This document shows positions 12,917-56,345 of a stretch of DNA of 64,000 bases, piece after piece. Below the pieces are notes generated by a model. That model ran no database searches. It had not been told where the DNA came from and saw only the letters and a program-made list of their open reading frames with translations. Both the position numbers and the translations under genes were made by a program. The stretch covers positions 3,637 to 67,636 of the forward strand of contig JAKAMI010000001.1 of NCBI GenBank assembly GCA_021812945.1. The letters run 5' to 3'. Numbering within the stretch: the first letter of the stretch is position 1; every line of letters begins with the position of its first letter. This stretch comes from a bacterium. Lineage in GTDB: Bacteria > Patescibacteriota > UBA1384 > XYA2-FULL-43-10 > JAKAMI01.

Positions 12917-15900
12917 CTATTGTTTTCCCCAATAGTTGGGTTCGTCGAAGAGTTTTTTGGAGGGTTGCTTTGGGGCGGGTTTCTTCTCCTCCTCAACATC
13001 TGCTTTGACTTTAGGATTATAAGTATTTACTTTAAAAATTGAAGGTTGGTTGAGATTCTCAGGCCAGGTCTTACCTTCTTCAGTATCGTCGACTTTATCG
13101 GGCTCAATAATGTCGGCCGGAGTTGTTTCCGATTCGACTGGTTTTGGGGGTTCTTTGTAAGTATTTATTTTGATCTCCGGACTTAGTTTTGGTTCGTTTT
13201 GTTCTTCTGGTTCATCGGTCTGGATTCCTGCCTTCGCAGGAATGACAGAGGGAGAGGCAGAAATGACAGTAGGGGTGGGTTTAGTCGGAATCGGTTTTGC
13301 TTTTAGTTTGGTGTCAGATATCGTCTTTTTGACTAAATCGATTGTTTCCGATTTTTGTTTCGCGACTGGTTCGGATTTTGAAGATTCGGACTGGATTCCT
13401 GCCTCCGCAGGAATGACAGGGTGAGAAGCGGAAATGACAGATGGGGAGGCAGTAATGACAGAAGAAGGGGAATCAACCTTTTTCGTTTTGGGTTTGGCCT
13501 CAATATCGGCCGGTTTGTCATGAGATGTTTTGGGCGGATTGCCTTTCGGGGGCTTGACCTCGCAAACTTGGTCTTCGGGTTTTTCTTCTTCCGGACGGAT
13601 GATGGTGACGGAAGAAACTCGGTCGTCGGTCAGGCGCATCAGAGTCACTCCCTGGGTGTCGCGTCCGAGCCGTTTGATAGTGGAGAGTTTCATCCGGATA
13701 ACTTGGCCGTTTCTGGAGGCTAGAACCACATCACCCAAGTCGTCGTGGATTATGTGCATACCGATAAGATTGCCGGTTTTCGTTGTGCAGTTAGCGGCCT
13801 TGATCCCGACCCCGCCGCGTTTTTGCAGGTGGAAATGCTTGAGCATAGTTCGCTTGCCGTAACCGTTTTCCAGAACCACCAGCATATCAGGAAAGCCGGA
13901 TTTTGGCGCATAGTCGGTAAATGGCGACAGAGCTTTCTCGACTACATCGACCCCCATGACAAAGTCGCCCGGCCGCAGGTTGATGCCGCGGACTCCGGCC
14001 GCCGACCGGCCCATAGCTCGAACATCGGTCTCCGGGTAGCAAATAGCTTGACCCTTGGAGCTGACTTGGACTATGACCGAGTCGCCTTCGGTCAGTTTGA
14101 CCCATTTGAGCTCGTCGGCTTTGTTGAGTTTGATAGCGATAATGCCGGACTTTCGAACGTTTTTATAGGCTAGGACTTGAGTTTTCTTGACCACGCCCTT
14201 TTGGGTCGCCATAAAGAAATACTTTGACTCGTCCAGTGCATTTTTCTTGACCATCAAAAGTGTGGTGACTTTCTCGTTCGGCGCCAGCTGGATAATGTTG
14301 ACCAAAGCCACACCTTTGGCCTGGCGTCCCGAAGCCGGAATCTCGTAGACCTTGGTTCTGAACAATCGCCCCTGATTGGTGAAGAACATCACGTCGTCGT
14401 GAGTCGAAACGCACAGCAGATGCTCGACGGCGTCTTCTTCCTTGGTCGTCATCCCGGTCACGCCCTTGCCGCCGCGAACTTGAGAACGATAAGTGTCGAC
14501 CGGTAAACGTTTAATGTAGCCGCCGGTGGTCAGGGTGACGATGACCTGTTCGTCCGGAATCAAGTCCTCGGCGGTGAATTTGCCGATGGCTTGCTCGACG
14601 ACTTGGGTCCGACGCTTATCGCCGTATTTGGTCTTGATCTCGTTTATTTCGGTTTTAATCAGAGCCAATATTTTGGCTGGATTGTTGAGTAGATCTTCCA
14701 GATAAGCGATCAGCTTGAGTTTTTCTTGGTACTCATCCTCGACCTTTTGCCGCTCTAAGCCGGCCAAAGCCGAGAGTCTCATCTCTAAGATGGCCGAGGC
14801 TTGTTTGCCTGAAAGACCGAAACGAGCCATCAAGTTCTTGTGGGCCGTTTCTTTGGTGGTTGATTTCTTGATGGTCTCGATAATCTCTTCGATGTGGTCA
14901 AGAGCGATCTTCAAGCCTTCGAGAATATGAGCCCGATCCTTGGCTTTCAAAAGATCATACTTTGTACGACGAGTTATGACAACTTGTCGATGGGCAATGA
15001 AAAAGCTAATGATCTCCGGCAGACTCATAAGTTGCGGCTCAAGAGAGGGTGTCAGCGCTAGCATATTGACATGAAAAGCCGTTTGCATCTGAGTCAGCTC
15101 GTAAAGCCGGTTTAGGATTTTGTTGGGATAAGCGTTGGCTTTTATTTCGATGACTACTCGGACACCGTTGCGGTCGGACTCGTCGCGAATATCGTAAATG
15201 CCCTCCAGTTTTTTCTCTTGAACCAGGTCGGCAATCTTAGAGATAAGAGTGGATTTATTGACTTGGTAAGGAATCTCGGTGATAACGATGCGAAAGCCCC
15301 GTTTTTGCTCCTCGATCTCGGCTTTGGCGCGGATAACCACCTTGCCCTTGCCGGTAGCATAGGCCTGTTTTATCTCGCTGATGTCATAAATGATACCGCC
15401 GGTCGGAAAATCAGGTCCTTTGACAAACTCCATCAAGTCTTCGACTGTGGCTTCGGGGTTATCTATTTGATAATTTATCGCGTCGCAAACTTCGGTCAGA
15501 TTATGAGGAGGGATATTGGTCGCCATGCCGACAGCGATACCCATGGAACCGTTGAGCAAAAGTTGAGGCACTTTGGCCGGCAAAACTTTCGGTTCTTTCT
15601 TGGTCGAGTCGTAGTTGTCCTGCCAGTCAACCGTGTCTTTGTCAAGGTCAAAGAGCATCTCTTCGGCCATCTTGGTCATGCGGGCTTCGGTGTATCGCAT
15701 AGCGGCGGCCGAGTCTCCGTCCATAGAACCGAAGTTGCCTTGGCCGTCAACCATCTGGTAACGCATCGAGAAATCTTGAGCCATCCGGACCAAAGTATCG
15801 TAAATGGCCATGTCGCCGTGCGGGTGGTAGTTTCCCATAACTTCACCGACAATGGTGGCGGATTTTCTGTATTTGACGTTTGACCTTAACCCCAGATTAC

Positions 15901-16186
15901 CCATAGCAAAAAGCACCCGGCGGTGGACCGGCTTCAAGCCGTCTCGAACATCGGGCAGGGCGCGCGAGACAATAATGCTCATAGCGTAGTCAAGGTAGGA
16001 CTCTTGCATCTCTCGGACTATGCCGCGGGATTTGATAGTGCCGATGTTGGGGTCGATGATGATCTGATTTTCTTCCACTAAAATAGGTTCCTCGACAATT
16101 TCCGGCAAGGTCTCGTTGTTTTCATCGACCACCGTCTCTTCCGGCTCGATTGGTTCGTTTTCAGTTGTTTGCTTTTCGTCAGCCAT
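12917..16186 (-). CDS. gyrA: DNA gyrase subunit A with ~250-aa low-complexity C-terminal extension
   Basis: Conserved GyrA N-terminal and core (RALPDVRDGLKPVHRRVL, active-site region AAMRYTE), GyrA-box-type beta-pinwheel repeats. The Pro/Ser/Lys-rich tail carries repeated VISASPSVIPAKAGIQ/VITASPSVISASHPVIPAEAGIQ. Confidence 0.93.
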   Translation of the reverse strand: MADEKQTTENEPIEPEETVVDENNETLPEIVEEPILVEENQIIIDPNIGTIKSRGIVREMQESYLDYAMSIIVSRALPDVRDGLKPVHRRVLFAMGNLGLRSNVKYRKSATIVGEVMGNYHPHGDMAIYDTLVRMAQDFSMRYQMVDGQGNFGSMDGDSAAAMRYTEARMTKMAEEMLFDLDKDTVDWQDNYDSTKKEPKVLPAKVPQLLLNGSMGIAVGMATNIPPHNLTEVCDAINYQIDNPEATVEDLMEFVKGPDFPTGGIIYDISEIKQAYATGKGKVVIRAKAEIEEQKRGFRIVITEIPYQVNKSTLISKIADLVQEKKLEGIYDIRDESDRNGVRVVIEIKANAYPNKILNRLYELTQMQTAFHVNMLALTPSLEPQLMSLPEIISFFIAHRQVVITRRTKYDLLKAKDRAHILEGLKIALDHIEEIIETIKKSTTKETAHKNLMARFGLSGKQASAILEMRLSALAGLERQKVEDEYQEKLKLIAYLEDLLNNPAKILALIKTEINEIKTKYGDKRRTQVVEQAIGKFTAEDLIPDEQVIVTLTTGGYIKRLPVDTYRSQVRGGKGVTGMTTKEEDAVEHLLCVSTHDDVMFFTNQGRLFRTKVYEIPASGRQAKGVALVNIIQLAPNEKVTTLLMVKKNALDESKYFFMATQKGVVKKTQVLAYKNVRKSGIIAIKLNKADELKWVKLTEGDSVIVQVSSKGQAICYPETDVRAMGRSAAGVRGINLRPGDFVMGVDVVEKALSPFTDYAPKSGFPDMLVVLENGYGKRTMLKHFHLQKRGGVGIKAANCTTKTGNLIGMHIIHDDLGDVVLASRNGQVIRMKLSTIKRLGRDTQGVTLMRLTDDRVSSVTIIRPEEEKPEDQVCEVKPPKGNPPKTSHDKPADIEAKPKTKKVDSPSSVITASPSVISASHPVIPAEAGIQSESSKSEPVAKQKSETIDLVKKTISDTKLKAKPIPTKPTPTVISASPSVIPAKAGIQTDEPEEQNEPKLSPEIKINTYKEPPKPVESETTPADIIEPDKVDDTEEGKTWPENLNQPSIFKVNTYNPKVKADVEEEKKPAPKQPSKKLFDEPNYWGKQ

Positions 16187-16311: not shown

Positions 16312-18959
16312 CTAGACGTCCAAATTCTTGACCGCCTTGGCATGGGTTTGGATGAAGCGCTTGCGCGGCGGGACTTCGTCGCCCATCAGCATGGTAAATA
16401 TTTCGTCGGCTTTTTCGGCCTCTTCCACCGTCACCTGCAAAAGCACCCGATTGGCCGGATTCATAGTCGTCTGCCAGAGCTGTTCCGGATTCATTTCACC
16501 CAGACCCTTGTAGCGCTGAATACTGATCTTCCCAGGCTTTTTCTTATCCGATTTTGGATCATTGTCTTTTTCTGTGTCTCCCTCGGTTTCTTCAGTTTCT
16601 TCATCAACAATTTCTTCCGGACTTTCGGACTCTTGGACTTCGGACTGTATTTCTTCCGGCTCAAACCCGATTTTCTTTAAATAATCGTCCTTTTCCTGGT
16701 CGTTGTAGCATGGCACCTTTTCTTTGCCGTGGCTAATAATGTAGAGAGGCGGCTGGGCGATATAGATGTGGCCGTTTTCGACAATGTCGGGGAAATTGCG
16801 ATAGAAAAATGTCAAAAGTAGCGTGCGGATGTGAGCGCCGTCAACGTCGGCGTCTGTCATAATGATGATGCGGTGATAGCGAAGTTTCTTGTAGTCAATC
16901 TGGTCGCCGATACCGACTCCGACCGCCACGATTAAGGCTTTGATCTCGTCCGAGGACAACATCCGGTCCAGCCGGGCCCGTTCGACATTTAATATTTTCC
17001 CCCGCAAAGGTAATATAGCTTGAAAATTCCGATCTCGAGCTGATTTGGCACTGTTATGAACAAAAACTCCTGAAGCCAGTGCAAAGTTATGAGTGCTCGG
17101 TACTTCTATATCATAAACATCGATGTTCGTTTTTAATGACTCAATCCGCACCAATTTGAGATTACTGTGATCTATCTCGGATATGTTTGATGAAGTAATA
17201 TCAATATCAAAAGACATTAAACTTGAATCGGTTTTTAAGTCTTTCGCCTGAATAAAAGAACTGTCGCGCAACATGAACTTATGGTCCGGGGTACAAACTA
17301 TTTCTTCCCCATTATCAAGAACTAGTTTAATAACCGAGGCTTTTTTATGAGTCAACCGAGGATTTGTTATTTTTTCAATCCCTATTTTGCCACCTTGCTT
17401 TATCGTGTAACAATAATTTTGTTTCCCTTTTTTGTCTTCCTCAATAAGTTGCTTAAATGATAAATTTCTTCCGTCGGTTAGGGCTACTTTTGCATCACCT
17501 GAAAAACATCCACCGGCACTGTCGCCCTCCACAATATAGATTTCCGATCTGGAGGGATCTTTGCTGGAGCAGTCGGCCAGTTTACCCGGAAGCGTCATAC
17601 CCTCCAAAGCACCCTTGCGGATAATGGTCTCGCGGGCGGCACGAGCGGCGAGTCTGGCTTTGGCCGAAAGCGAACATTTTTCGACTATTCGGCGTCCCTC
17701 CTGTGGATTTTCTTCGAGGTAATAGGCAAAACCCTCGGCGGTGGCCGTCTCGGCGATGGAGCGGACCTCGGCGTTGCCGAGCTTGGCTTTGGTTTGGCCC
17801 TCGAACTGGGGTTCACGGAGTTTGACTGAGATAACGGCGGTTAGACCCTCCCGCACGTCGTCGCCGGAAAGCGCTTCGGAGGCGGATTTGATCCAGCCGT
17901 TTTTCTTGGCATAATCGTTGATAACCCGAGTCAATGCTGAGCGGAAGCCGGTCAGATGAGTCCCGCCGTCGGTGGTGTGAATGTTGTTGGCAAAGGAGTA
18001 AACGTGTTCTTTGAAATCGTCGGTGTAAACTACCGCGATGGTGGTTTGGACATCATCGATAATCTTTTCGTAGTAAAAAGGTTTCTCGTTGATCGGCTGG
18101 CGGTTTTTGGAGAGGCTAACGACGTAAGATTTGATCCCGCCTTCAAAATAAAAATTGTAAATTTTTGGTTTTAGAGACGGCTCTTTGGGCTGGATCGGTC
18201 TCGATTCTTTATTGTCAATATCGTCTTCTTCGATTTTTTCCCCAACAACATCGGTCTCGGTAATCTCTTCCTCGGATTCTATTTGATCGTCAAAATCTTC
18301 TTCTGCCGAATCTGTTACCCCGATCCGCTCGTCGGTTATGGTAATCCAAACTTTTTTCGTTAAATAGGCCTGCTGGCGGAGATGGTCGACGATAGTTTTG
18401 AAAGAAAATCGAATATTTTTGAAAATTTCCGGATCCGGTGAAAAGGTAATGATGGTTCCGGTACCCTCCGCAGTTCCGACCACTTTAATGTCTGAGAGCG
18501 GCTTGCCCTTCTCGTATTCCTGGGCGTAAAGTTTGCCGTCGCGTTTGACCTCGGCTCGAAGTTTGGTCGAAAGCGCATTTACCACTGAGACGCCGACACC
18601 GTGGAGACCGCCGGAGACTTTGTAGCCGCCGTCGCCAAACTTACCTCCGGCGTGGAGGATGGTCAAAACCGTTTCCAGAGCCGATTTGCCAGTCTGGCGC
18701 TGTTTGTCGACCGGAATGCCGCGGCCGTTATCGGTGATGCGTGCCGAACCGTCGGGAAGAAGCGTAACTTCGATCCGATCGCAGTAACCGGCCATCGCCT
18801 CGTCTAGGGAGTTGTCAAAAACTTCCCAGATCAAGTGATGCAGACCTTCCGGACCGGTACCGCCGATATACATTCCCGGACGTTTGCGAACCGGATCAAG
18901 CCCTTCAAGGACAGTGATCTGACTGGCATCGTATGTAGTTTTCTTTTTGTCGTCTGGCA
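16312..18959 (-). CDS. gyrB: DNA gyrase subunit B, interrupted in-frame by a mini-intein
   Basis: GyrB ATPase (HAGGKFGDGGYKVSGGLHGVGVSVVNALS), TOPRIM EGDSAGG / SAKSARDRNFQAILPLRGKILN. The likely start is MPDDKKK at 18959. The ORF-track start at 19053 reads through an upstream REP palindrome. Acidic insertions are also present. Confidence 0.93.
17053..17508 (-). other. Mini-intein (152 aa, no homing-endonuclease domain) inserted in the GyrB TOPRIM motif EGDSAGG^SAK
   Basis: N-terminal CFSGDAKVAL (block A), TxxH block B (IVCTPDHKF), C-terminal GVFVHN followed by +1 Ser. Flanking extein residues restore the conserved GyrB motif. Confidence 0.8.
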
Positions 18960-19022
18960 TATATTGAGATCCTTTCACAAACCTATTGCGCAGATAATAC
19001 CGATTTTGCCTACAAAGACAGT

Positions 19023-19063
19023 CTTTGCAAATGTGTCTAAAGACTGTCATCACTAGCCATCGG
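19023..19063. repeat. REP-like palindrome (AAAGACAGTCTTT family)
   Basis: ACAAAGACAGTCTTTGCAAATGTGTCTAAAGACTGTCATCA, upstream of gyrB. Confidence 0.75.
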
Positions 19064-19313: not shown

Positions 19314-20279
19314 TCACGCATTCAGAGCCTGCCATTGGACTGCGAACATCTCAGCGACCTCGCGGTGGCCGTGACTGAGGGCATGCTGGCTAGGGGTCAG
19401 CTCATCTTTGTCGGCGAGTGTGGGGTCGGCGCCATGCTCGAGTAGCGTCTTGAAGATCGAACCCATGTCGCCGAAGCGGCCGAGGTAGTGAGTCAGGACA
19501 GTCTGACCCGACTTGTTCTTGATGTTCGGACTGGCGCCAAGATCGAGCAGTCCGGTCACTGCCGCGGACAGGCGAGCTTCCGGCCAGTGCCAGACACTGA
19601 TTCCCTTACCGATGATGTGAAGCGGCGTCAGCCCGTCACTGTCCTGGGCATTGATCTCGGCGCCCAACTCAACCAGCTTGGCTGCCGTCAGGGGCTGACA
19701 CATCTCGGCCGCATTGTGGATAGGCTGGCGCCCTTTCTTGTTTCGAGGGCCGACCTTGGCTCCATGCCTGACCAGGAAAGCGACCTCGTCCGGGCGCGGA
19801 TAAAGCGACGTTGTCAGCTTGTGGAGCGGGGTATCCCCGTCCTGCTCGGTGGCGTTGATGTTGGCGCCCCGCTCTAGCAGAGCCTCGACCCTGTCATGCG
19901 GGATGACGTTCTGCAATGCACACTCGTAGTAGATCCAGAACAACGGAGTGTGCCCCCATGCCGAACGGCAGTCGACTTCACCGCCAGCGGTGATCAGAGC
20001 GTAAAGGTCCTCATTGGTTCCGTGCAACCCAACCCAATGAGGCAGGCAGCTGAGCTGGTCGCGCGCGGCGTTGGGGTCTCCACCCAACTCCAGATATTCA
20101 AGCAGTCTCTCACTACTGTAGTACGGAGGGTTGGTAGCCATCCAGTAAGCGTGGCCGATAACCCTCTCCAGATCTGGCTTATCCATGTCAATGACCTCCC
20201 ATCGGGTTTCAGGGGCTTGGTACCAGTATTTACCCCTGATGTTATCAGATAAGCACAAATTAAACAAAAACTCAACCAT
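19314..20279 (-). CDS. Ankyrin-repeat protein (>=5 ANK repeats), GC-rich relative to surroundings
   Basis: Repeated ANK consensus (DGDTPLHKLT, GRQPIHNAAE, DGLTPLHIIG, SGQTVLTHYL, LLEHGADP). Confidence 0.8.
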   Translation of the reverse strand: MVEFLFNLCLSDNIRGKYWYQAPETRWEVIDMDKPDLERVIGHAYWMATNPPYYSSERLLEYLELGGDPNAARDQLSCLPHWVGLHGTNEDLYALITAGGEVDCRSAWGHTPLFWIYYECALQNVIPHDRVEALLERGANINATEQDGDTPLHKLTTSLYPRPDEVAFLVRHGAKVGPRNKKGRQPIHNAAEMCQPLTAAKLVELGAEINAQDSDGLTPLHIIGKGISVWHWPEARLSAAVTGLLDLGASPNIKNKSGQTVLTHYLGRFGDMGSIFKTLLEHGADPTLADKDELTPSQHALSHGHREVAEMFAVQWQALNA

Positions 20280-20391: not shown

Positions 20392-20781
20392 TGGTGGAGG
20401 TGGCGGGAGTCGCACCCGCGTCCGAAAGGTAAAAACTTAAACTTCTACAGGCTTAGTTCCGATGAATTTTGTTTGAACAAGTGAAAATATCGGAACAAAT
20501 ATCACCTGCTCTATCTAAAGTAAGTCTTAAGGCGAATCGCTTTAGAACCGATAAGCCAGCAATTCGAAGTATGACGTGGTAATACTTTGGTCGAATAGCC
20601 AAAGTAGCCACGGTCGCGGCGATTAGGCTGCGACTGGCGCAAAAGTCATTCCTGCAAGAGCAGTATTGATTTTTGCTGAAAGTGATTTGACACTTAGTTT
20701 TGTCAACGCTTATACGGCGATTGACTCACCGGCCTGCTGCTTAAGTTTTTAATGTCCTTCCGTCGAAGCTAATACACCCCC
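20392..20781 (-). ncRNA. ssrA: tmRNA (ssrA), ~390 nt
   Basis: Minus-strand 3' end UUUCGGACGCGGGUGCGACUCCCGCCACCUCCACCA is nearly identical to the E. coli ssrA 3' end. 5' end GGGGGUGUAUUAGCUUCGACGGAAGG carries the UUCGACGG hallmark. Acceptor pairing GGGGGUG/CACCUCC. Candidate tag ORF GCA AAA AUC ...GUC GCA GCC UAA gives AKINTALAGMTFAPVAA. Confidence 0.88.
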
Positions 20782-36528: not shown

Positions 36529-39500
36529 TCATTGTCCCCTCATTTTGGTCAAAAACCTCGGCACCCAGGAGAAAGAACCGGTAATGGCGTCCATAATCAT
36601 CTGGAAGAGCTGTTTCTGCTTGGGCGGAGTGATCAGCGAAAAATCATCGGAAAAAGACTGATTGGCAGACCGATCCTTTGAGGTGACTCTGGCGTGGTAA
36701 GCCGAGTTTGCCTTGAGATCGTTCAGGATAATGACGTGAGTTTGGTTGAGAGACAAGTCCTCCTTTGTTTTCGAATCGTATGTTCCGGAAACCCCTTGGC
36801 CGTATTCGACCTGGCTTGTTGCCGACTCGTCGGTCTCCCAAGAGATGATGGCCTGATATTTGATGGCATTACCCGAACCGCTGGAGGTAATCTCGCTCTT
36901 CAGATTGGAAATGACCGGCGGAGTGGTATCGGCAGTGGTGGTGAAACTTATCTGACCGGAAACCGCGGTGTTGCCGAACTTATCCGTGCCTCTGGCAGTC
37001 GCGGTGTAGCCTTGCTTGGCCACCAAGCCGATGATAGTCACCGAGTGAATGGTGGTAGAATCGGATTTGCCCTGCTGACCCTGCTGGATGGCGGTTGGCG
37101 CATTTTGATCGACAGCCCGGCCTTCAACTTGAATAGCGGCGACGGGGGAGGTGGAAGCAAATTCAACATTGGAATCGGTATTGACGTTGGTATTCCAGGC
37201 GAGGGTGGCCGAGTTGGCCGAAGTCTCAGTAGCTTTGAAATCGGAGATTATCGGCTGCGCCGGAGTGGAAAAGACATAATCGTCCGAGGTGGTAATGTTG
37301 CCGTCCGTGTCTGTGGCTTTGATGCGGAGGTGATAAATGGCGCCGTCTTTAAGCTTGTCAAGCTTAAACTTGTGCTCGGTATTTAAGGTGGTGTCGATCA
37401 GGGTTGCGCCATAGCCGGTGGAATCGCCATAGTCCAAGCTAGTGATCGAGAGTTTGGAGGTGGACCAGGAGACCAGCGCTCCGGTCTGGGTAATGTCGGA
37501 GATAGTGGTGCCGGAAATCAGAAGCAGGATCCGCTCCGGTGTGGTGAAATCCAGCACATCGGAGTAACCAGCAATCTGAATCTCGTTCTTGGAGATAACC
37601 TTAAAGTAGTATTTAGCGGCCGGATCAAGATTGTAAAGCCAGATCTCGTGATTTAGAGTCATCTTCGGATCGCCGGCGATCTTAACGACCCCGCCATTAT
37701 CCGCAGTCATATCATCTTTGGCGTGGATTGAACTGGTCGAATAGGCCACCGAGGAGTCAGCGTTCTGATCGGTATCCCAGCTGATCTTGGCGCGAACTCC
37801 TTGGTCTTGTTTCCAGCCGAAGAGCTCGACCTTGGGTTTGGCCGTGACATCGGGTGCCGAACCGGGTTGAGATGAGAGCGGGCCGGCCGGAATAGAGAGG
37901 TTGCCGGCAGTGTCTTCGGCCTGAACCTTGTAGGCGTAAGTAATGCTGGAGGAGAGGTTAATATCCAGAAAGCCGTTTTTGGTGGTGGTGTCGACCTGAG
38001 AGTAAGTTGCGCCGTCGGTCGAACGGAAAACATGATAAGTCTTGGGTACCGGCACCACGTCATCCCAGACCAACGTCAAACGATACTTATTTGTCGCTAT
38101 GGTTGACCCATCCTTGATGGCAAAGTTGGCCGGCGTGCCATACAGAGTTTTGGAGGTCTGGGTTAAATTGTTCTCAAGATCCCTAAACTTGAAGTAGATA
38201 ATGTTTTTGTTTTGCAAATCAAAGTTATTCTTTGACGTTGCGTAACTCTCCCAGGAACCGCCGGCAAAGCCGGAGTCCATCGAGATCATCATCTGGATCG
38301 GATTTGAGTCATCGGTGACGTTTAAGACCAAGTTGACCGAGCCTCCGGCCGAGGCATCGCTAACAATCGAGTTGACCAACGGGTTCTTGGAGTCCAGAGT
38401 CAACAAGCTGGAATCGGCATAAGCATTTGAGCCTTGAGCGGTGACTTTGACCCGCATCTTGAAGGTGTTGTTCAAGAATTGGCCGTCAAAATCGACTTTG
38501 GGATCAAAGTAGGCGGTGTATTGCGGCAGGCTGGCGTCACCGTTGAAGCTGCCGTTGGTCTGTCCGGATTGAGCAGGGGCCGAAGCATTGGCCCAGGAGT
38601 TGCCGCCGGAGTTAAAGTAAGCGAGACTGACTTGGCTCGGCCAACGCAGTTTATACATCACCTTGACCTTGCCCGGATTGGCCGGATCGGTGCGGTCGAG
38701 CTGGACCGCCGTTACCTCTCTGGGGGCAATGTCGGCCGGCACGGCGTCTAAGGTGATACTCTTGTCGGTTTCAAGGTAAGAGTTGTCCTGTTTTTTGTAG
38801 GCATAAGAAACTTTGTAGTAGTAGTGGTTGCCGTTGGTCAGACCGGTGTCGGTGTAGTCAGTGCGCGTGCCGGCAGTTACCGCCAGCGGGTTGGGAGTGG
38901 TAACGATCTTGCTGTAGTTGGTCGGAAAGGCGGAACAGTCGGTGGTCGGGCTTAAAACGGGGCCTGCGGCGCAACGATAAATATAGGCCTGCGGCGTCAA
39001 GCCAGTGTCGGCCGGTATGTCAAAAGGATTGGTCCAAGTCAGGGTGACTTGCTGATAACCCGGGGCGGCTTCGATCAGATCGTTGACAAGGCCGGTGTGG
39101 TCGGTGGCGGTGTGGCGCGAGCCGGGAATATGAGTGGTAACGTAGACTTTGCTCGGATTGTTGGTCGAGGCCGGAAAGATACCGGTCGAGGCCGGATTTT
39201 TCGAAGGATCGGCCGGTTCAAGCCGCGGATCGGTTTTTTTGGTTGAAGGATCGGTAGCATAAGTCGAAGTTGGATCGACACATTCTGAGGCCGAAAGACT
39301 TTGGTAGCCGCCGGTTTGGAACTTGAAGTAATTTGTCGGGGTGTTTTGCGGAGTAAAGGTATGTGCCCCGAGATCGCCGGCCGGAAACTGGAAACAGCCG
39401 GAAGAGTCGGTCGAAACGGTCTTAGTGTAAGGCAAAACCGCTTGGGCATCGGAAGAATAAAAGTAAACCATACCGGCCTTAGAAGTCGGATCGTAGCCGT

Positions 39501-42500
39501 AGTCGGTTTTGACATTGCCGAAAGCGTCGAAGGCCGTCAGGGTGACATTTTCGCTAAAAGTAGTGTCGACTTGTTTTTCGTAATTGACCGAATTTCGAGA
39601 AATGATCGGGGTGGTGGTAATGCCGAAATGGTCGATCGACTGCGGTTTGACCGTGATGGTAAAGTCGGAAAACTTGTTGCCGTTATCCGAGGTCTTGACC
39701 CGAAAACGCAGATCTGTGCCGGAAGTCACCACGTTGAAACCGCTGCCGGCAAACTGATGAACACCGTTGTCGGCGCCGGTGCCCGAAGTAAAAGTATAAT
39801 GGGTGAGATAATCGTTGGCAAAGGTAAAATTGGCCGTGGAGCTTGCCGGATTGCCCGGGGTATCCGAGCCGCGATAAAGCTCAAACCAGACTTGACCGGT
39901 AAAGTTGTCTTTGACGTTGTTGTAGGCGTCGTAGGCGGTGACGTTGGGATTGTAGGGAGCGGCGGAGAAGCCGGGGGTATCCCAGGTGAAGTTACTCATA
40001 GCAAATCTTTGGGAGGCCGTTTGCGGGTAGGAAGCTAAGCCGAAATGGTCGGTTGAAGCGGCCGTGACGAAAATATTACCAATAGCATCGTATCTACTAC
40101 CTTCGGAGTTGTGCACCACAATTGACTGATTATCCTTGGTCTTTAGAACAAAGCCGGTGCCGGGGAAAGTATGAGCCCCGTTGTCCCCTCCGGCGCCGGT
40201 CGTGAAGGTGTATTTTACAACGTCCGTATAGGGAAAAGTCGCCTGCGAGTCGGAGGAGTAAAACCAGATTTGGCCGGTCCAGTCGTTTTTGGTATTGCCG
40301 TAAACGTCTTTGACCGTGACCACGATGTCATTGGCCGGCGAGGTAAAGGGAGTGCCGGCCACGATGTTAGTCGGATAACCGGAAAGCTGGAAGGAGCCGA
40401 AACCGGCCGGCTTGACGGTGATGCCTTGCGTCGCGTCTGTCCAGCCCAGCGACGGCGTCTCGGAAACAGTGATGGTATAGGGCACGCCCACCGGATTGGG
40501 CGAGGTGTCCTTGTAAAAGAAATTGGCGGAGTTTGAACCGACGCCGATTGTCAGGGTGTTGCTCGGAACCGTGGTCAAGCAACCGCCATCAGAGTAAAAA
40601 TGGCCGGTGGCGGAGTTGGTTTGCAGCACAAAGTTTTTCGCTCCCTCGGTGGCGGTTAAGGCGACGTCCTCGTTAATGACGTTTCGAATGCGATACTCCA
40701 TAATCGCCGAGCAGAAGGTGACGGTAATGTTTTGGGCGGCGGTGGTAAAAGCGGTGTGATCGATCGGAGCCACGGTAAAGGAACGGGCGGCCGAGGCGGC
40801 AGACCAGTGCTTGGAGCCGTCAAAGGAGTCCACACCCTCGGGGTCGTAAGCATAAGCGCGATAGTAAAAGGTGTCGCCCTGATGAAGTGCGGTAGCCAAA
40901 GTCAGCACGGCATCGCGGCCCGAGGAGTAGCCGCTGGTGCCGGCGACTTTGCCGGTAGCCATATCCTGATTGGAGAAATTGGCCGTGCGGTTGCCGTCGT
41001 TTGGCGTTTGCGACACGGTCTCGTCGAAAGTCGAGACATTCTGGCTAAAGCTGGCATCGGTCGCCAGCTGCAACTTATATTGAATCCAGTCACCATCCGG
41101 ATCGGTCGAATTAAAGTGAAAAGCGATAAGTTGAGATTGGTTGATGGCGCCATCAGTCGAGGGCGCGGTAATGGTCGGAGCGCTCGGCGAGTGCTGAACT
41201 TGAATAGTGCCGTTGCCGCCGGCCGCGCCGCCACCAACACCGCAAGTACCGCCGGTGGCAGTCTTGGCGCCGGTATATGTATCAGTAGCCGGATAAATAG
41301 CTATTCGCCCTCCGCCTCCGCCGCCGCCAAAAGAGGCGCTGTTGCCGCCGTTGGCGGTAATGGTTGCGCCGGTGGTGCCGGACAATGTGCCCGAGACAAC
41401 CACTTGCACCGAGCCGCCCGAGCCGCCGCCAAAACCGGCCCCGCCATCGGTACCGTTGGCGGTGATCTTGCCGGTTGCGCCCATCGCCAAGTTGCCGGTG
41501 ACGTTCATCTTGACCATGCCACCGCCGGAGCCGGCGTTACCGGCCCCCGACTGGCCGGCGTGCCCGCCGCCCGAGCCAAGATAATTGTTGTTTGTCTGGC
41601 TGCCGTAGGCCGCGCCGCCAACTGAGCCGCCGGAAGAGTTGCCGCCGGCTCCGCCGTAACCGCCGCCCGAGCCATAGGCCCAGTTGGCCACCACGCTCCC
41701 GTGCCCGGGTCCGGCGTCTTGAGCAAAGCCGTTGCCGTCGGCCGAAACCGTCCCCGAAAGAGTCAGATTGCCCCCGACATTCAAAGTCGGCCAAGCACCC
41801 TGCGTGGGCGTGCCGGAGTTGTCCGAGAGCATCGTGAGGGAAGAATTGGAAGCTATCGTAACCGCCCCGGTAGTGGTGACGATTTGGTTTTTTGAAAGAG
41901 CAAAATTACCCTTGTTGAGGATTGAAATAGAATCAAAAGCGTATGTTGCAGTATCTGTAGATGTTTTGAGAAAAGTATACCCGGGACCAGTGTTACCGTT
42001 ATTGTTAACAATGAGTCTACCATTTGCTTCACCTGGATGTATCTCAAAAACCGTCCCTGCTGATGCATAGAAACCATTATAGGAACCAAGACTATAAGCT
42101 GAGTCAACTCCGTTATATGTCCATGAAGAATTTGCAGAAATCTTGACCCGACCACCACTTCCGGCACCGCAACCAGTCGAGTACCCATTAGCCGATATGG
42201 CCCCATTTCCCGCAAAGTTAACCGTTGTAATATTTATAGAACCACCAGCTGCACTTTGATTGTTTCCCCCATTCGCCAAAATACTATTGGTCGAGTTGGC
42301 GCTTACTGTTCCGGTGGCATTTATTGCCGCTACACCACCACCACCGGTAGAATAGCCACAAACAGCAGTCCCTCCAAGTAACGAAGGATTCGAGTAGTCA
42401 CCAAAAGCATCGCCCTGCGGGTACCCCTGGCCGCCATAACTATAATTACCAGTACCTAATAATCCTTGGGTTGAAACATCTATTTTACCGCCATTCTGCA

Positions 42501-45500
42501 GAGTCAAATTAACAAGGTTAAGTATAAGTTTGTAGCTCTCAGACGTCGTATTTGCTACATGTGACACAACACCACCAGTATCAACAGTCATATTAAAGAG
42601 CGCTCCTCCGCTAGAATCTGTAATTTTACCAGTAATACTCCCCCCACTCGGTGCCTGATACCAGCCTGTATCGCAAAGCGTCGTGCCGTCGGCTTTTTTG
42701 CAGGTCGTACCCATCTCGAGGGTGTAATTCGAAACCGTCCAGCCAGTCGCCGGAACTTTCAGAGTACCATAAACGTCAAGCACACCGCTGGTCGCGCTGC
42801 CTGTAAAAGGAGTATTGGCCGAAATATCTAGTGTTTGGCCCGTAAAGATTGCTAATCGGCCCTGGTTCTTGACAGTTATCACATCAAACACGTACGATCC
42901 ACTGTCGCTTGAGGTTTTAAGGGCTGTGTTTTGAGAAGTCGCTTGGTTCGAGTTATCAATAATAATTTCACCGTTTGCTTCCCCGGGTTTTCTGACAAAA
43001 ACCGTTCCAGCAGCCCCCACATTGCCTCCGCCCCAATTACCACCATAGGCAACAGCTGAACTAACCGAATATGTCCCGGTGGCCTCCAAAGCGATTCTTC
43101 CACCCGATCCTCCGGGGTAAGCACTGCCGTCGCTCGCAGAAACAGTACCGGTACTTGTCAGGTTTGTGGTCTTTAGCCATATGCTACCGCCGGCGCCGTT
43201 TGAGGGCGCATTGGATAAGATACTGCCACTATTTGTCACGCTGGTTGCTATAATTTTGGCTACACCTCCTCCGGCTTGGCCGCCATAGTACTGAGTACCG
43301 CCGCTACCCAAGCGGTTGGGGGAATCATAACTGCCGTATTGGCTATTGGTATATCCATAACCATCACCGCCATATGAGCCACCCCTAGAGTTCAAAGCGC
43401 CGCCGGCCGGTCCCTGAATATATCCCATACCAGAGACGTCTACTTTACCCCCAGTTTGAATAGTTAAAGATCTCAAATTAACAATAAGTTTGTACTGTTC
43501 GGTGCTTGTATTCTGAACTAAATTGTAGGCTTGGGATAATGCTCCACCACTGGCTATCGTCAGATCCACAACATTACCACCAGTCGGATCGGTTATCTTG
43601 CCATAGAGGGTTGTATTGGCCGTAGTGTCGTCCCAACCGGGATCGCATCCGCCCCCGGCATTTTTGACACAACTGGTGCCGACGCCTAGAGTATAATTGG
43701 ATACCGTATAACTGGTCGGGACTTTGATCGTACCAAAAGTAGTTAGAGACCCAGTGCCATCCCCGCCGATAGTGGTGCCCGAAGTAATATCGAAAACCTT
43801 AGAGGTTCCGTTAATATCAAGTTTTCCGCCGGAATTGAGAGTAATGGCCGTAAAAGTGCTTCCGCCCGTGGAATTTTGAACGCTGTTCGACGAGGCTCCG
43901 TTATCAACGAGTCTGAAGCCGGAAATTGTTGGCGAATCTTTGAGCTTTATTACTCCGGTAGCCTTGATAAGCCCGGTACAATAGTAGCCGATAGCGTCAG
44001 CGCCACCGCCGTAAGTATTGCAGGCGCCACCGCCGGTAATGTCAAAAGCTGAGGCGTTTACGGTTTGGCCGGAAACAATTTCCAGCCGGCTTCCCTTATT
44101 GACTGTGATTGCATCAAACGTATATACCCCTGTGTCAGTCTCTCCCATCAGGGTTGCGCCAAGATCTGAGCCGTTGTCGAGACCGGCGTTATCCAAAACT
44201 AATCGCCCATTGGTGTCCCCAGGCCGTTTCTCATAAACCGTGCCGTTACCCCCGGCATCATTCCAGCCATCAACTACCTTGCTTGCCGACTCAGTTCCGC
44301 TAAAAGACCAAACGCCCGTTGCATAAATCGCTAATCGTCCACCACCGCCCGATGACGGAGCACAACAGCCATTTGAACCGCTCCTAGTCACGACTGAACC
44401 GTTACCCGAAAAGGACGCCGAGGTTATCCAAATACTACCTCCCGAGCCTCCGCCAGAACCTGTACCCGATGCCGACATTGTTCCGTTAACCGCCACTGAA
44501 CCGGTTGAGGTGATTTTGATCGCCCCACCAGAATTACCGCCACTGCCCAAGCTTACCGGTTGTGAATAACTCCCATAAGTAGCGTGGGTAGAATTATTAG
44601 CTGATCTGCCTCCATACTCACTGGTCGTTTTTAAGCCGGGGCCGTTTGATTTGCCTTTTGCGTCAGCGTTCATATTACCGTTGGTACCAATAACAAGACT
44701 GCCTACGGCATATTCATTCCCCCGCCCGTCAGCCAAACTACCATGCAATACAGTCGTGTCTCCGTCCGAGGTCACTATACCAGAATTGATAATAAATTCG
44801 CCGGTAATATTAATCTTATACGGGTCAACGTTCTGCGACGGCTTATTTTGAAAATTAATCGTGCCGGAGTAACCGGTCTCCACATATAGGCCGCCGAGAC
44901 CATCGACAATACCGTTGCCGGAGGTGAAAGTTGTTACCGTGCAATTTTGGACCGAAGATGGGTCAAAGACAACGATGTCGCCAGCCGCCGGCGCCCCTGA
45001 AGGCGTCCAGTTGGCTGCGGTTTCCCAGTTTCCGGCTGCCGCGGCGGTCCAGCGTTTGACACTCGGGGCGTAGTTTAAATTGTAAGGGCTGGCCGTACCG
45101 GAGACAAAGACCACCGGAGAATAGGAGTTAATGCCGCTGTTTCTGTTTGTAAATATTTTCGCGGATGCGGCCACCCAAGCGAACGAACCACTTAACGTCG
45201 CATTGTGCCCACCGCTAGAGGAATCGGCAGCTAATGTTCCAGATCCTTCATCAAAATGCCACAACCCAACGGTATTGCCGTCGGTTGTAAACTGATTTAT
45301 TGGGGGGGGAAAACTAGATGTATAACGCGCGATGTTTGAGATTCTAAGTTCGTCGATTGTTCCAAAATTTTGCCCTCCATAGGCCATACTGTTGCCAAGC
45401 ACAGTAATATCATCTGTCAGCTGCATATTTGCCGTCCCAACAAGCAAGCCGTCAATATACATTTTCGTCGTCCCGGAACTGCCAACCCCAGTAAGATAAT

Positions 45501-48210
45501 GCCACCCTGAAGTTAAACTAGTTACATTATAATTCGACGTGTAGAAGTTCCCGTTATAAACCCCCAACTGGCCATCTCTTTCAACAACAATATGCTGGTT
45601 ACTTATGGTGCCCTTTACAAGTGTCCGACGACCGTCACCGGTTGTTGGCAAAGGAAATTGCACCCACGCCTCCACTGTCCAAGTGCTACCAATTACAACA
45701 TTTGATACAGTGCCAGAACCAGAACTTGGGGAATTAAAGTTTATTGCTGCATTACTGGATCCCGTTTGCGTAACAGGTGTCGGCTTCAGTGCTGCCTGGG
45801 CGATCAGGTTGTTGCCGTTATCGGTGGTGACGGCCACGGCCACGCCGAAAGTGCCGGCAGAGCCGATTTTTTCCGCATACTTGATATTGTAAGAATTGAC
45901 CCCGACGTATTCCGAGTAGTAAAGGTAGATGGCATCGTTTAAGCCCAGGCCGAGACTGGGATTTTTGTCATTGGCGTGGCTGGCGCCGGTGGTGACGGCG
46001 GTTGAGGCGGCGTCCCAGCTGGCGGCGGCGTTGGCACATTTGCGGTATTTGATCCCGACCGAGTTGTCTTTCCAGGCCAGATGGAGGTAGTGATCGCTGG
46101 TTTCCTGCCCGATCGAGAACTCTTGGTTTAGGGCGGTTCCGACATCGGAGGCGATGGTCTCGTTGGCCCAGCCGGCCGTTTGGAAAGTGCCGGCAGTGGC
46201 GTAGTTCCACCTGAGAGAAGCATTGGCGAAGTTGTAGATAACAGCCGGATTATCATTCCAGAGAGTGAGGGCGGGGTAAGTGGCGGCATTGGTGTTGACG
46301 GCGGCCGATAATGTTGACGCCGCACCCCAAGTCGAGCCGTCGGCGGCAGTTGAGGCTTTGGCTTTGATAGTGTAGTTGGTGGCATCATAATACCGATAAG
46401 CGACAAAGATGGTGCCGGAAGATGTGACCGCAACGGCGGGGAAAGCCTGGGAAGTGCCGGCGCTCTCGACGGTTCTTTCGGTGCCGGTGGAGGTGATGGC
46501 GTGGGTAGCGGTGTCATAGGTCATCTGGCGGTAGAAGATGTAAGAGTTGGTGCCATTGTTGGAGTAGGCCAGATGGATCTTGTTGTCGGCGGTAATCCAA
46601 GAAGAGAAGCCGTAGTCATCGGTTAGAGTCGAGGCAAAGATTTGGGTGCCGGTGGCGCTCCAGGTGTTGCCGTGGTCGGAAGAGATTTTATATGAGAGGC
46701 CGTTACCGTCGGAGTAGATGTTGACCATATCCCCGTTGGTCGCCTCCAGTAGCGTCCGGTCTTTGGAGAAGGAGTTGGGGTTGGTGGTGGTGGAGGTAGC
46801 GACGGTGACGGTGGGGTCAATGGTTAGAGGATACTCAGGCGAGCCAAGACAGTCTTTCGGGGCATTGGCAAAGACTGTCTGGTTGCCGCTGCCTGAAAGA
46901 CTGTTGTCGCTGCCCGGAGACGACAGTCTTTGCCGGTAACAGGCATTGGTTTGAGCCAGCCAGTTTGGATCGATCTCATAGCGAGCTAGGTTGGCGCTTT
47001 GGTCTAGGGTTAGTTTAATCTTGTCGTCGAAATGATTGCCGGTTTTATCGGTTAAGGTCGCTTTGAGTAGGGTGAAGAGTCCCTCCTGAGTTTGTTGGTC
47101 TTTTAGCACATAGGAGCTGTCCGGGTTAGAGATGATACTTAAGTTGCTTAAATTACTTAAGTTAAAATCAATGGATGAAATGCTTCCAAGAGCTTTGGGT
47201 GAGTTTAGAACAAGGTCTTCTTTGAGCTTACCCGGGCTGACTTGGTAGTTGGCGGTAATCTCGGGGTTGATCTCGAGGGAGTACTTTTGCTTGGCTCCGT
47301 CGTTTTCGCGGATCTTGACACCGGAGGCAACCTCTTTCTTGGTTTTGACGTCATCCGATGTAACAGCTTTTGGCACATTGGGAGTATTTGTCTCGTTGGT
47401 CAGATTAGTCCCGTTGGTCGGGTTGGAACTGTCCGATGGAACATCAGCGGCTTGAGCAGTTTCAGCGAAGACAGCTTCAGCCAAGACAGTCTTTTTAGCT
47501 TCAGCAAAGACAGTCTTGTTGCTCCCCGAAAGACTGTTATCACTGCCCGAAGATGACAGTCTTTGCCGGTTTAAGGCAACCTGATCTTTGGGGACTAGAA
47601 GATCGAAACCGACTTTTCTAACCTCACCGTCTTTGTTCTGGGTAGCCACCGAGACCGAGGCATTTCTGGTTGTACGATCGGAGAGGTTGACCGTTAGCTG
47701 GTCGGAAGAACCGGTGATCGCGGCCGAGTCGTCAACTTTACCTTTGGCTTTTTCCTGAACATTGGGAATGTCCGCTCGCGAGCCGACAACAGCCACCGAA
47801 ACCGATTTAAGTCCGGAGAAAGGCTGATTGGCTTTTGTCTCCGAAAACGAGGAGGCATACAAGCTCAGCCCGAACACAAAAGACAGGCAGACCAAAGCCA
47901 AAGCTGAAATGTTTATCTTGGAGGCGTTGGGGTTTAAGTGCCAGAGGTAGTACCACCGCCACTTCATCCTGAGATTGTTGTGGACCGGGATAAAGAATCG
48001 AAAGCTAGTGCGAGTCGAGTTTTGAATGGACATCAACTGATTATTGAGCTTGGATTCGACATCCTGGCCACTGAACGATTCCGGTAATTTACCGGAAAGT
48101 TTGGCTGACCGGATAATTTTTTGCACCAGAAAAACGGCCGCCCCTTTAGGGAAAGTCAGAATTTTATGGATGATGTACCGGATTTTTAACATATAACCAC
48201 TAATAATCAC
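36529..48210 (-). CDS. Giant (3,893 aa) surface/adhesin-like protein. N-terminal membrane anchor, LamG-like lectin, BNR/Asp-box, long Gly/Ser-rich parallel beta-helix repeats, multiple FN3-like domains.
   Basis: Single uninterrupted ORF. BNR motif SDHGNTWS, LamG-like [19 protein letters not shown], extensive GGSGG/SGGSGGRI repeats, FN3-like C-terminal modules. Contains two in-frame REP-derived segments. Confidence 0.8.
46848..46935. repeat. REP-derived segment embedded in-frame in the giant protein gene
   Basis: CAAGACAGTCTTTCGGGGCATTGGCAAAGACTGTCTGG...GAAAGACTGTTGTCGCTGCCCGGAGACGACAGTCTTTGCC. Encodes [29 protein letters not shown]. Confidence 0.65.
47465..47575. repeat. REP-derived segment embedded in-frame in the giant protein gene (second copy)
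   Basis: GAAGACAGCTTCAGCCAAGACAGTCTTTTTAGCTTCAGCAAAGACAGTCTTG...GAAAGACTGTTATCACTGCCCGAAGATGACAGTCTTTGCC. Encodes [36 protein letters not shown]. Confidence 0.65.
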
Positions 48211-50448: not shown

Positions 50449-50576
50449 ACTTTCCTTAAATTACCAATAATCAACGATCAATGATCAATTAATTATCAAT
50501 GGACAAGGGGGAAATGAAAATTAATACTTGATTATTAAATGATAATTGAAAATTGATATTTGAAAATTGAATCCGG
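50449..50576. repeat. Solo copy of the AT-rich core found in the three rnpB insertions (TGATCAA-rich half plus TTGAAAATTGATATTTGAAA half), lacking the terminal hairpins
   Basis: CAATAATCAACGATCAATGATCAATTAATTATCAATGG...TTGAAAATTGATATTTGAAAATTGAAT matches the rnpB insertion cores. Confidence 0.6.
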
Positions 50577-55474: not shown

Positions 55475-55641
55475 CCGTGTAAAGCACGGAATGATCAAAA
55501 TAATATTCAATGATCAAGGATCAGTTAATGTTCAATTATCAATGATCAAGCAAGTACTTGAAAGTTGAAACTTGATATTTAATTGAAAATTGATATTTGA
55601 AACTTGAAAATTAATCTTTGATACTTCCGCGCTTTGCGCGG
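55475..55641 (+). repeat. rnpB insertion 1 (167 bp) at the P3 position
   Basis: Begins CCGTGTAAAGCACGG, AT-rich TGATCAA/TTGAAA core, ends CCGCGCTTTGCGCGG. The two termini are imperfect inverted repeats (14/15 pairs as RNA). Confidence 0.85.
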
Positions 55642-55738
55642 CTGGGGAGGAAAGTCCGGGCACCAAAGAGTATGGCACCAATGAAAGTTGGCTGGCGTAA
55701 TGCCACGGGAATAGTGCAACAGAAAACATACCGCCGAA

Positions 55739-55912
55739 CCGTGTAAAGCACGGAATGATCAAAATAATATTCAATGGTCAATGATCAATGATCAGTTAAT
55801 ATCCAATTATCAATAATCAATTTAACTATTGAAAATTGAGAATTGATACTTAATTGAAAATTGACACTTGAAACTTGAAAATTAATCTTTGATACTTCCG
55901 CGCTTTGCGCGG
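55739..55912 (+). repeat. rnpB insertion 2 (174 bp) at the P9 position
   Basis: Same termini and core as insertion 1. Replaces the P9 hairpin between ...ACCGCCGAAC and UGGUAAGG. Confidence 0.85.
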
Positions 55913-56076
55913 TGGTAAGGTTGAAATCGTAGTGTAAGAGACTACGCGTTTGATGGGAAACTATCAACTGTGAAAACCCTGCCTGGTGCAAGTTGGGTGG
56001 GCCCTTTATCATCATTTGCGGCTTCTCGTCGCGATGACCTCGGGTCCCAACGCTTAGATAGATTATTGCCGCCGCG

Positions 56077-56250
56077 CCGTGTAAAGCACGGAATGATCAA
56101 AACAATGTTCAAGGATCAATGGTCAATGATCAGTTAATATCCAATTATCAATGATCAAGCGAGTACTTGAAAATTGAGACTTGATATTTAATTGAAAATT
56201 GATATTTGAAACTTGAAAATTTATCTTTGATACTTCCGCGCTTTGCGCGG
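56077..56250 (+). repeat. rnpB insertion 3 (174 bp) in the linker between the P2 and P4 3' strands
   Basis: Same termini and core. Flanked by ...UUAUUGCCGCCGCG and CGAGGUACAGAACCCGG. Confidence 0.85.
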
Positions 56251-56345
56251 CGAGGTACAGAACCCGGCTTATAGGTTCGTTTAAGCACAGAGCTACATTT
56301 AGGCCTCCGTAACTTTATGGCCTGTCCCCTTCGGGGGAATGTGGC

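Follow-up and report, generated by a model that had tools for sequence, protein, structure and literature searches.

A predicted natural mini-intein of the gyrB allele in the DNA gyrase B subunit of a Patescibacteriota bacterium

The stretch of DNA analyzed in this study, hereafter called the window, comprises 64,000 nucleotides (64 kb) of contig JAKAMI010000001.1 from a Patescibacteriota bacterium (assembly GCA_021812945.1). Its minus strand carries a gyrB gene in which the TOPRIM motif of the gyrase B subunit is interrupted by a segment of 152 amino acids (aa) that every sequence-level criterion identifies as a class-1 (canonical) intein and that is predicted to splice. We are highly confident that this segment is a class-1 mini-intein of the gyrB allele that would be excised from an 882-aa precursor and that most probably arrived horizontally and descends from an endonuclease-bearing intein. 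The GyrB intein allele and natural GyrB mini-inteins have already been described, and the finding is thus correct but ordinary.

The insertion in the TOPRIM motif of GyrB

An earlier note on this DNA had placed a 152-aa mini-intein in the GyrB TOPRIM motif at positions 17053-17508 without naming a strand. These coordinates are right for the minus strand, where the translation gives 152 residues (CFSGDAKVAL...GVFVHN; the ends read CFSGDAKVALTDGRN...HNFALASGVFVHN); the plus-strand reading was rejected, being nonsense with stop codons throughout. Together with its flanks the segment reads ...IYIVEGDSAGG/CFSGD...VFVHN/SAKSARDRNFQAILPLRGKIL (slashes mark the splice junctions; the N-extein side can also be written ...SEIYIVEGDSAGG/C), residue for residue the split of EGDSAGG that the note had described. 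It lies inside an open reading frame (ORF) of 913 codons (16312-19053, minus strand). Translation likely starts at the ATG at position 18960, and the 882-aa product from this codon is identical to database protein P0036. A naturally split intein was considered and rejected, since one uninterrupted ORF covers both exteins and the intein.

The full protein scores 916 bits on the gyrB equivalog model TIGR01059, above its cut-off, and contains the Pfam domains HATPase_c, DNA_gyraseB, Intein_splicing, Toprim and DNA_gyraseB_C. When the 152 residues are removed, the remaining flanks align without a gap to residues 378-535 of Escherichia coli GyrB across EGDSAGGSAK, a check on the exteins that the earlier note had proposed. 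In this alignment residue E49 of the query corresponds to the TOPRIM catalytic residue Glu424, and the insertion point falls between Gly430 and Ser431, six residues past Glu424. In orthologue P0038, which has no intein, the uninterrupted site reads YIVEGDSAGGSAKQARD.

One genome per prokaryotic species was scanned with patterns of intein blocks F and G, which gave at least 599 stretches, at least 586 of them confirmed by tblastn; at least 586 species-level genomes, from both bacteria and archaea, encode a relative. Detailed extraction covered the best 80 of these loci, a sample in which the short query favored short inteins. A clean intein of 140-202 aa sits at exactly E[G]DSAGG/C...VHN/SAK in 77 of the 80 loci, cyanobacterial ones included, and Cys1, VHN and Ser+1 (SAK) are found in all 77. 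These identical junctions (EGDSAGG/SAK) and the homology of the inteins assign the insertion in the window to the gyrB intein allele, which answers the question of the insertion site raised in the note.

Splicing domain, catalytic residues and predicted fold

A search with intein profiles, which the note had also advised, gave scores above the cut-off for all three models. Pfam Intein_splicing matches the segment with an E-value of 5.6e-17 and 62.4 bits (cut-off 35.8), while the NCBIfam models intein_Nterm (TIGR01445) and intein_Cterm (TIGR01443) score 47 bits (cut-off 24.5) and 29.7 bits (cut-off 15.6), respectively. A family hidden Markov model (HMM) composed of the 77 same-site inteins and the window's own sequence recovers the gyrB ORF in the six-frame translation of the window (E-value 7.6e-72) and has no second match there, leaving this as the sole intein in the 64 kb. 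A sequence search of the PDB with the intein returned inteins or related Hint and bacterial intein-like (BIL) domains (CDC21, DnaE, NrdJ-1, RadA, DnaB, and others).

The class-1 residue set is complete, with C1, T73-P-D-H76, D133, H140, H151-N152 and Ser+1. Block A (Cys1), block B (TPDH, residues 73-76), the terminal HN (residues 151-152) and the nucleophilic serine behind it are present as the earlier note had read them, and block F can be added. T73, P74 and H76 are kept in at least 90% of the 78 aligned inteins, and the only departures of the window intein from columns with at least 90% conservation are T6A and G83S, both non-catalytic. No endonuclease domain was found by Pfam in the 152-aa segment, where the sole other match (PT-HINT) is weak and below the cut-off. 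The segment therefore has the N- and C-terminal splicing regions of an intein without a homing endonuclease between them, as expected of a mini-intein. It is indeed too short for such an enzyme: about 20 linker residues of low model confidence, without any Pfam match, stand where full-length relatives have an insert of about 290 aa.

The AlphaFold2 model (18 aligned sequences) has a mean predicted local distance difference test (pLDDT) score of 88.4 and a predicted template modeling (TM) score of 0.80. It predicts a single HINT domain, all-beta with one short helix, which is the fold of inteins; a short linker is disordered, and low confidence is confined to residues ~100-120. Foldseek against the PDB places the Npu DnaE intein first (E-value 1.5e-10, TM 0.79/0.86), and the mini-inteins of Ssp DnaB, Ssp DnaE, NrdJ-1 and Mtu RecA come next. 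The solved structures of Npu DnaE, Ssp DnaB, NrdJ-1 and Mtu RecA share the HINT fold and the catalytic layout with the model (TM 0.75-0.86, the range of the top matches) at 18-26% identity. They differ in that they reside in other host proteins and at other sites, and in that DnaE and NrdJ-1 are naturally split, whereas the window intein is contiguous.

Could the segment be a lineage-specific insertion of GyrB, or a BIL or other Hint domain, rather than a true intein? BIL and hedgehog Hint domains do appear among the weaker Foldseek matches (ranks 26-42), and the same GyrB has other lineage-specific acidic insertions. However, the best fold matches are bona fide inteins, both terminal models specific to inteins pass their cut-offs, and empty-site orthologues exist. 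A BIL domain in particular was rejected, as the segment occupies a conserved site of an essential enzyme and has both the terminal HN and Ser+1. The earlier note had itself allowed for an insertion without intein blocks and for relatives that do not conserve Cys1 or the terminal Asn; Cys1 and HN occur in all 77 relatives. We regard this explanation as already refuted, with a negligible probability.

There are two such acidic insertions, both of low complexity: one of about 55 aa follows the ATPase domain (DSAEEDFDDQIESEEE...), and one of about 45 aa precedes the C-terminal domain (EPEEIQSEVQESESPEE...). Both are common to P0037 and P0038, the relatives of the window's GyrB described below, which indicates clade-specific features of the exteins and not mobile elements.

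Distribution of same-site relatives

The relatives are spread over both domains. The archaeal hosts include DPANN archaea, Methanosarcinales, Methanomassiliicoccales and Thermoplasmata. Within the Patescibacteria they include Saccharibacteria, Nomurabacteria, Magasanikbacteria and Paceibacterota, and further bacterial hosts belong to the Cyanobacteria, Chloroflexota, Planctomycetes, Omnitrophota, Acidobacteriota and Gemmatimonadota. Nine cyanobacterial loci (L005, L019, L041, L044, L048, L057 and L059-L061) carry an intein at the site used in the window.

A search with the spliced GyrB returned P0036 (the window's own protein) first, followed by P0037 (84% identity, 1164 aa, with an intein) and then by P0038-P0041, which are about 74% identical, 708-747 aa long and devoid of an intein domain. 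After P0041 comes a long run of intein-less GyrB proteins with 62-66% identity, some of them named Patescibacteria group or Candidatus Berkelbacteria. Among the top 120 GyrB matches, P0129 and P0154 are the only intein carriers besides P0036 and P0037. The inteins of P0037 and P0129 are 432-433 aa long and occupy the same site, while that of P0154 has 141 aa. With so few carriers among the GyrB relatives, the element is sporadic inside the host's own clade.

A search with the intein alone yielded metagenomic GyrB fragments with identical junctions and one GyrA intein. The latter, on metagenomic fragment P0008, follows ...GQGNFG/CFTGETEVKLADGR and is 57% identical to the N-terminal part of the window intein. 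Closely related splicing domains are thus found in both gyrase subunits of environmental genomes. The intein matches also included proteins of about 250 aa with the organization 'IntC + C-extein', which looked like possible split GyrB inteins. In locus L087 (2462-5768 of ENA contig_1, 1.15 Mb) a gene for an 831-aa N-extein, IntN and endonuclease is separated by 43 nt from a gene for a 255-aa IntC and C-extein; where the endonuclease insert ends, two frames contain stops, and the gene is broken there by stops or frameshifts. In locus L088 (3953-7237) gyrB is in many pieces, a pattern typical of error-prone assembly. The calling of gyrB as two or more genes in these loci, a feature of the relatives and not of the window, could reflect a decaying endonuclease or errors in long reads; for L087 a truly split GyrB intein is a further possibility.

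Composition, selection and origin of the intein

The intein differs from its host gene in composition, with a GC content of 0.353 against 0.504 in the exteins and a GC content at third codon positions (GC3) of 0.316 against 0.587. Only 1 of 203 segments of equal size from the long ORFs of the window is equally low. Across the 77 loci, intein GC3 follows that of the host (r = 0.94) and is lower in 71, with a mean deficit of 0.11; the gap of 0.27 in the window is among the largest.

A composition break this sharp is also what might be seen in an assembly chimera, in which AT-rich intein DNA from another organism of the metagenome had been joined into gyrB. Against such a chimera, the junctions are codon-exact and in frame, and the identical 882-aa protein is present on 9 contigs (the places shown being GCA_021842745.1, GCA_027426595.1 and one ENA assembly). 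Moreover, an intein GC below that of the host gene is general in the family (75 of 77 loci). We therefore consider a chimera extremely unlikely.

The nearest GyrB relative is P0037 (locus L084), which carries its intein at the identical site and with a GC of 0.356. The inteins of P0037 and the window differ at a proportion of nonsynonymous sites (pN) of 0.155 and a proportion of synonymous sites (pS) of 0.84, the latter being saturated, which gives a pN/pS of about 0.18; in the flanking exteins pN is 0.05-0.08. The few nonsynonymous relative to synonymous differences indicate that the splicing core is under purifying selection, although less strict than that on the exteins.

For identities, the splicing core was taken as the N-terminal 98 and C-terminal 30 residues of the intein, and the exteins were compared over the 300 residues flanking the site. 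Core identity to the window intein is 62-73% for the twelve closest same-site inteins. The values are 73.4% for P0037, 72.7% for both P0154 and L004 (a Planctomycetia metagenome-assembled genome, MAG), 71.9% for P0129, and 71.1% for both L010 (a Saccharibacteria MAG) and L008 (a Pacearchaeota genome). The corresponding flanks are 91.7% (P0037), 73.6% (P0129), 69.1% (P0154), 61.9% (L010), 55.0% (L004) and 51.7% (L008) identical. The intein is hence more similar than the host flanks in distant hosts and much less similar than the flanks in the sister lineage, a decoupling expected of a horizontally moving element. The foreign composition and the sporadic distribution fit such a spreading element as well.

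The P0037 intein is 432 aa long and has about 290 extra residues between SLMPL and NYNHKI, whereas the window intein has about 20 unrelated residues there. Within the excised insert, HNH_3 matches at HHIDYNKLNNNPDN with an E-value of 0.029, below the cut-off, and a Pfam scan of the whole P0037 intein found no endonuclease family. Because the HNH_3 match is sub-threshold, we call this insert 'HNH-like' and no more. The short linker at the endonuclease position is consistent with a mini-intein that arose when the endonuclease domain was lost. Most probably, the window intein would be an endonuclease-less descendant of an endonuclease-bearing (HNH-like) gyrB intein, horizontally transferred from an AT-rich donor.

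Some observations weigh against this account of the intein and its origin. The linker motifs have diverged from the family (SLMPLY to SLMSFD and NHKI to NLKL), and linker residues ~99-118 are poorly predicted, with block means of pLDDT between 54 and 68, low values that occur nowhere else in the model. The full-length intein of the sister lineage is no closer (73%) than the planctomycete and Saccharibacteria inteins (71-73%), and with core identities this flat, vertical descent followed by deletion and independent acquisition are indistinguishable. The AT shift is also hard to square with a long vertical residence, given the saturation at synonymous sites that separates the two lineages. A direct deletion derivative of the full-length P0037 intein is not claimed, since its 73.4% core identity does not stand out against 71-73% for inteins of unrelated hosts.

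Proposed splicing reaction

Based on established intein chemistry, which the splicing steps follow, the whole 882-aa precursor would be translated and the 152-residue HINT domain would fold and remove itself. Cys1 would attack the carbonyl of Gly(-1) in an N-S acyl shift, with T73 and H76 of block B straining the scissile bond. In the subsequent transesterification, the N-extein would be moved from the thioester to the side chain of Ser+1. Asn152 would then cyclize to a succinimide, helped by H151 and by D133 and H140 of block F, and free the intein. A final O-N shift would restore the peptide bond and give a 730-aa GyrB with an intact EGDSAGGSAK; the ligated junction would read IVEGDSAGGSAK and be spanned by IYIVEGDSAGGSAK. 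The intein would be kept since its precise loss is rare and splicing renders the insertion nearly harmless. Having no homing endonuclease, the element can no longer home by itself.

The loop that is split here is the acidic metal-binding loop of the TOPRIM domain in type IIA topoisomerases, and an unspliced gyrase is expected to be inactive. From the interrupted loop, the open ORF, the intact residues and the purifying selection we infer that the intein splices.

A dead intein remnant would keep the HINT domain but no longer splice, so that gyrB would either be non-functional or tolerate the insertion and gyrase would come from elsewhere. The degenerate linker with its low model confidence, the lost endonuclease and the exchanges T6A and G83S at columns with at least 90% conservation could be signs of such decay. 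We nevertheless judge it very unlikely, as no catalytic residue is lost, the native -1/+1 context is preserved, the reading frame is open and three independent assemblies contain the identical protein. The pN/pS of about 0.18 and the position of the split, six residues past E424 in the acidic TOPRIM loop, where an unspliced protein should be inactive, likewise speak against a remnant. In addition, gyrB and gyrA form a normal pair, and there is no second gyrB in the 64 kb.

A further proposal has two parts: the mini-intein might switch gyrase maturation on or off conditionally (e.g., in response to redox or stress) and, separately, an endonuclease-less intein might have crossed phyla recently by recombination alone. 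The first part draws on the site being six residues from the catalytic Glu, so that unspliced GyrB should be inactive. Two non-catalytic cysteines, C33 and, just ahead of block B, C72, are kept in at least 90% of the 78 same-site inteins. Disulfide trapping of the catalytic Cys has been reported for some other inteins, and by analogy C33 or C72 might trap Cys1 in a disulfide; they leave room for conditional splicing without indicating it. For the second part, the extreme AT shift and the host-independent similarity would permit such a transfer. Taken jointly, we hold the two parts to be unlikely, and the nearly harmless, self-splicing mini-intein described above is preferred.

Organization of the locus and other features of the window

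The features of the gyrB locus and of the remaining window are given in Table 1. The gene next to gyrB on its upstream side encodes an ankyrin-repeat protein, and the tmRNA gene comes after it. The ankyrin gene also adjoins gyrB in other assemblies of the same organism and does not do so in relative L085. In this intein-less relative, a gene for a 3887-aa protein lies directly upstream of gyrB, while the giant ORF of the window is located about 17 kb from gyrB. The differing distance of the giant gene suggests that the gyrB neighborhood may have been rearranged. The only Pfam match of the giant ORF is a purple-acid-phosphatase N-terminal (fibronectin-like) domain.

At its C terminus, GyrA is extended by about 290 aa of low complexity, encoded in the 3' part of the gene. 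Two copies (86% identical) of a 64-nt repeat occur in this extension, along with 21-nt sub-repeats. The 64-nt repeat includes the palindrome ATTCCTGC...GCAGGAAT and is read in frame as VIPAEAGIQ/VIPAKAGIQ. The repeat in the GyrA tail is a palindromic repeat element within coding sequence.

The RNase P RNA match (RF00010, 124 bits) extends over 681 nt against 367 positions of the model and owes its excess length to two insertions, each of about 150 nt. An AT-rich repeat of 136 nt that ends in a GC hairpin (CCGCGC-TTT-GCGCGG) is present in three copies with 89-100% identity. One copy overlaps the RNA at its 5' end, two lie inside it, and a fourth copy elsewhere in the window is 74% identical. 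The repeat resembles a small element, mobile or structured, that has inserted into the ribozyme gene.

Table 1. Positions of the gyrB precursor gene, the predicted intein and further features in the window
Feature	Position	Strand	Remarks
gyrB precursor gene	16312..18960	-	882 aa + stop: 484-aa N-extein, 152-aa intein, 246-aa C-extein
N-extein coding part, ends ...IYIVEGDSAGG (Gly-1)	17509..18960	-	aligned to E. coli GyrB through Gly430
Predicted mini-intein, C1 to N152, 152 aa	17053..17508	-	
Cys1 codon, block A nucleophile	17506..17508	-	
Block B motif T73-P-D-H76	17281..17292	-	
Linker remnant, residues ~99-118, SFDIDITSSNISEIDHSN...	17155..17214	-	low pLDDT; position of the endonuclease insert in full-length relatives
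Blocks F and G, VYDIEVPSTHNFALASGVFVHN (D133, H140, H151, N152)	17053..17118	-	TIGR01443 on residues 130-152
Ser+1 codon, C-extein residue 1, predicted transesterification nucleophile	17050..17052	-	
C-extein coding part (remaining TOPRIM, GyrB C-terminal domain) and stop codon	16312..17052	-	
Acidic GyrB insertion 1	18090-18260	-	approximate
Acidic GyrB insertion 2	16480-16610	-	approximate
gyrA, directly downstream of gyrB (gyrB-gyrA pair)	12917..16186	-	context only; same order in relatives
gyrA 3' part, C-terminal extension	12917-13800	-	
64-nt repeats in gyrA	13215-13278 and 13386-13449		
Ankyrin-repeat protein gene	19314-20279	-	321 aa
tmRNA gene	20392-20781	-	RF00023, 127.6 bits
Giant ORF	36529-48210	-	3893 aa
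136-nt repeat, fourth copy	50465-50573		
Region of the RNase P RNA and its 136-nt repeats	55507-56287	+	
136-nt repeat, copy overlapping the RNA 5' end	55507-55642		
136-nt repeats inside the RNA	55778-55913 and 56116-56251		

Relation to known inteins and significance

The founding member of the gyrB allele is the Ssp GyrB intein, an experimentally splicing class-1 intein that shares its host protein with the window intein. Full-length Ssp GyrB has about 435 aa with an HNH-type endonuclease, and its minimized versions were engineered, unlike the window intein, which is a natural mini-intein of 152 aa. That both represent the same allele is indicated by the cyanobacterial relatives at the window's site and by the treatment of gyrB as a single allele in the literature. 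In a survey of Halobacteria, one gyrB allele was common to Halobacteria, 19 bacteria and another euryarchaeon, and its authors considered this allele old and subject to transfer between domains (PMC4071816). Protein engineering makes use of split forms of the Ssp GyrB intein, which comes from Synechocystis PCC 6803 (PMC3443213; PMC7765530). A genomic census listed 33 bacterial GyrB inteins (PMC4760082), and 61 intein-bearing archaeal GyrB sequences were removed from a phylogeny of gyrase (PMC9348778).

Endonuclease loss is the standard view of how natural mini-inteins arise (PMC7765530). A natural GyrB mini-intein of 123 aa is known from Desulfonema ishimotonii; it was reported to have relatives among the inteins of candidate phyla, archaea and cyanobacteria and to have been acquired horizontally (PMC6390638). 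Likened by its description, it is natural and endonuclease-less like the window intein, but shorter and from another host phylum. The element in the window is thus assigned to the known gyrB allele of inteins, the Ssp GyrB type, as a new and uncharacterized member. The exact protein is already present in public assemblies with a precomputed Intein_splicing match.

The practical value of the finding is small, and current understanding is left unchallenged. Before gyrB can serve as a marker in phylogenetics or in quality control by gene length, the precursor must be spliced in silico, because an unrecognized intein inflates the gene by 456 bp and brings in a foreign signal. The comparison set is of some modest further use, as protein engineers can draw on it for short natural inteins of the GyrB type. 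Since it combines 77 mini-inteins at one site with 432-aa relatives and with empty sites from the same clade, it also forms a compact dataset on the gain, decay and loss of inteins and on their transfer across domains.

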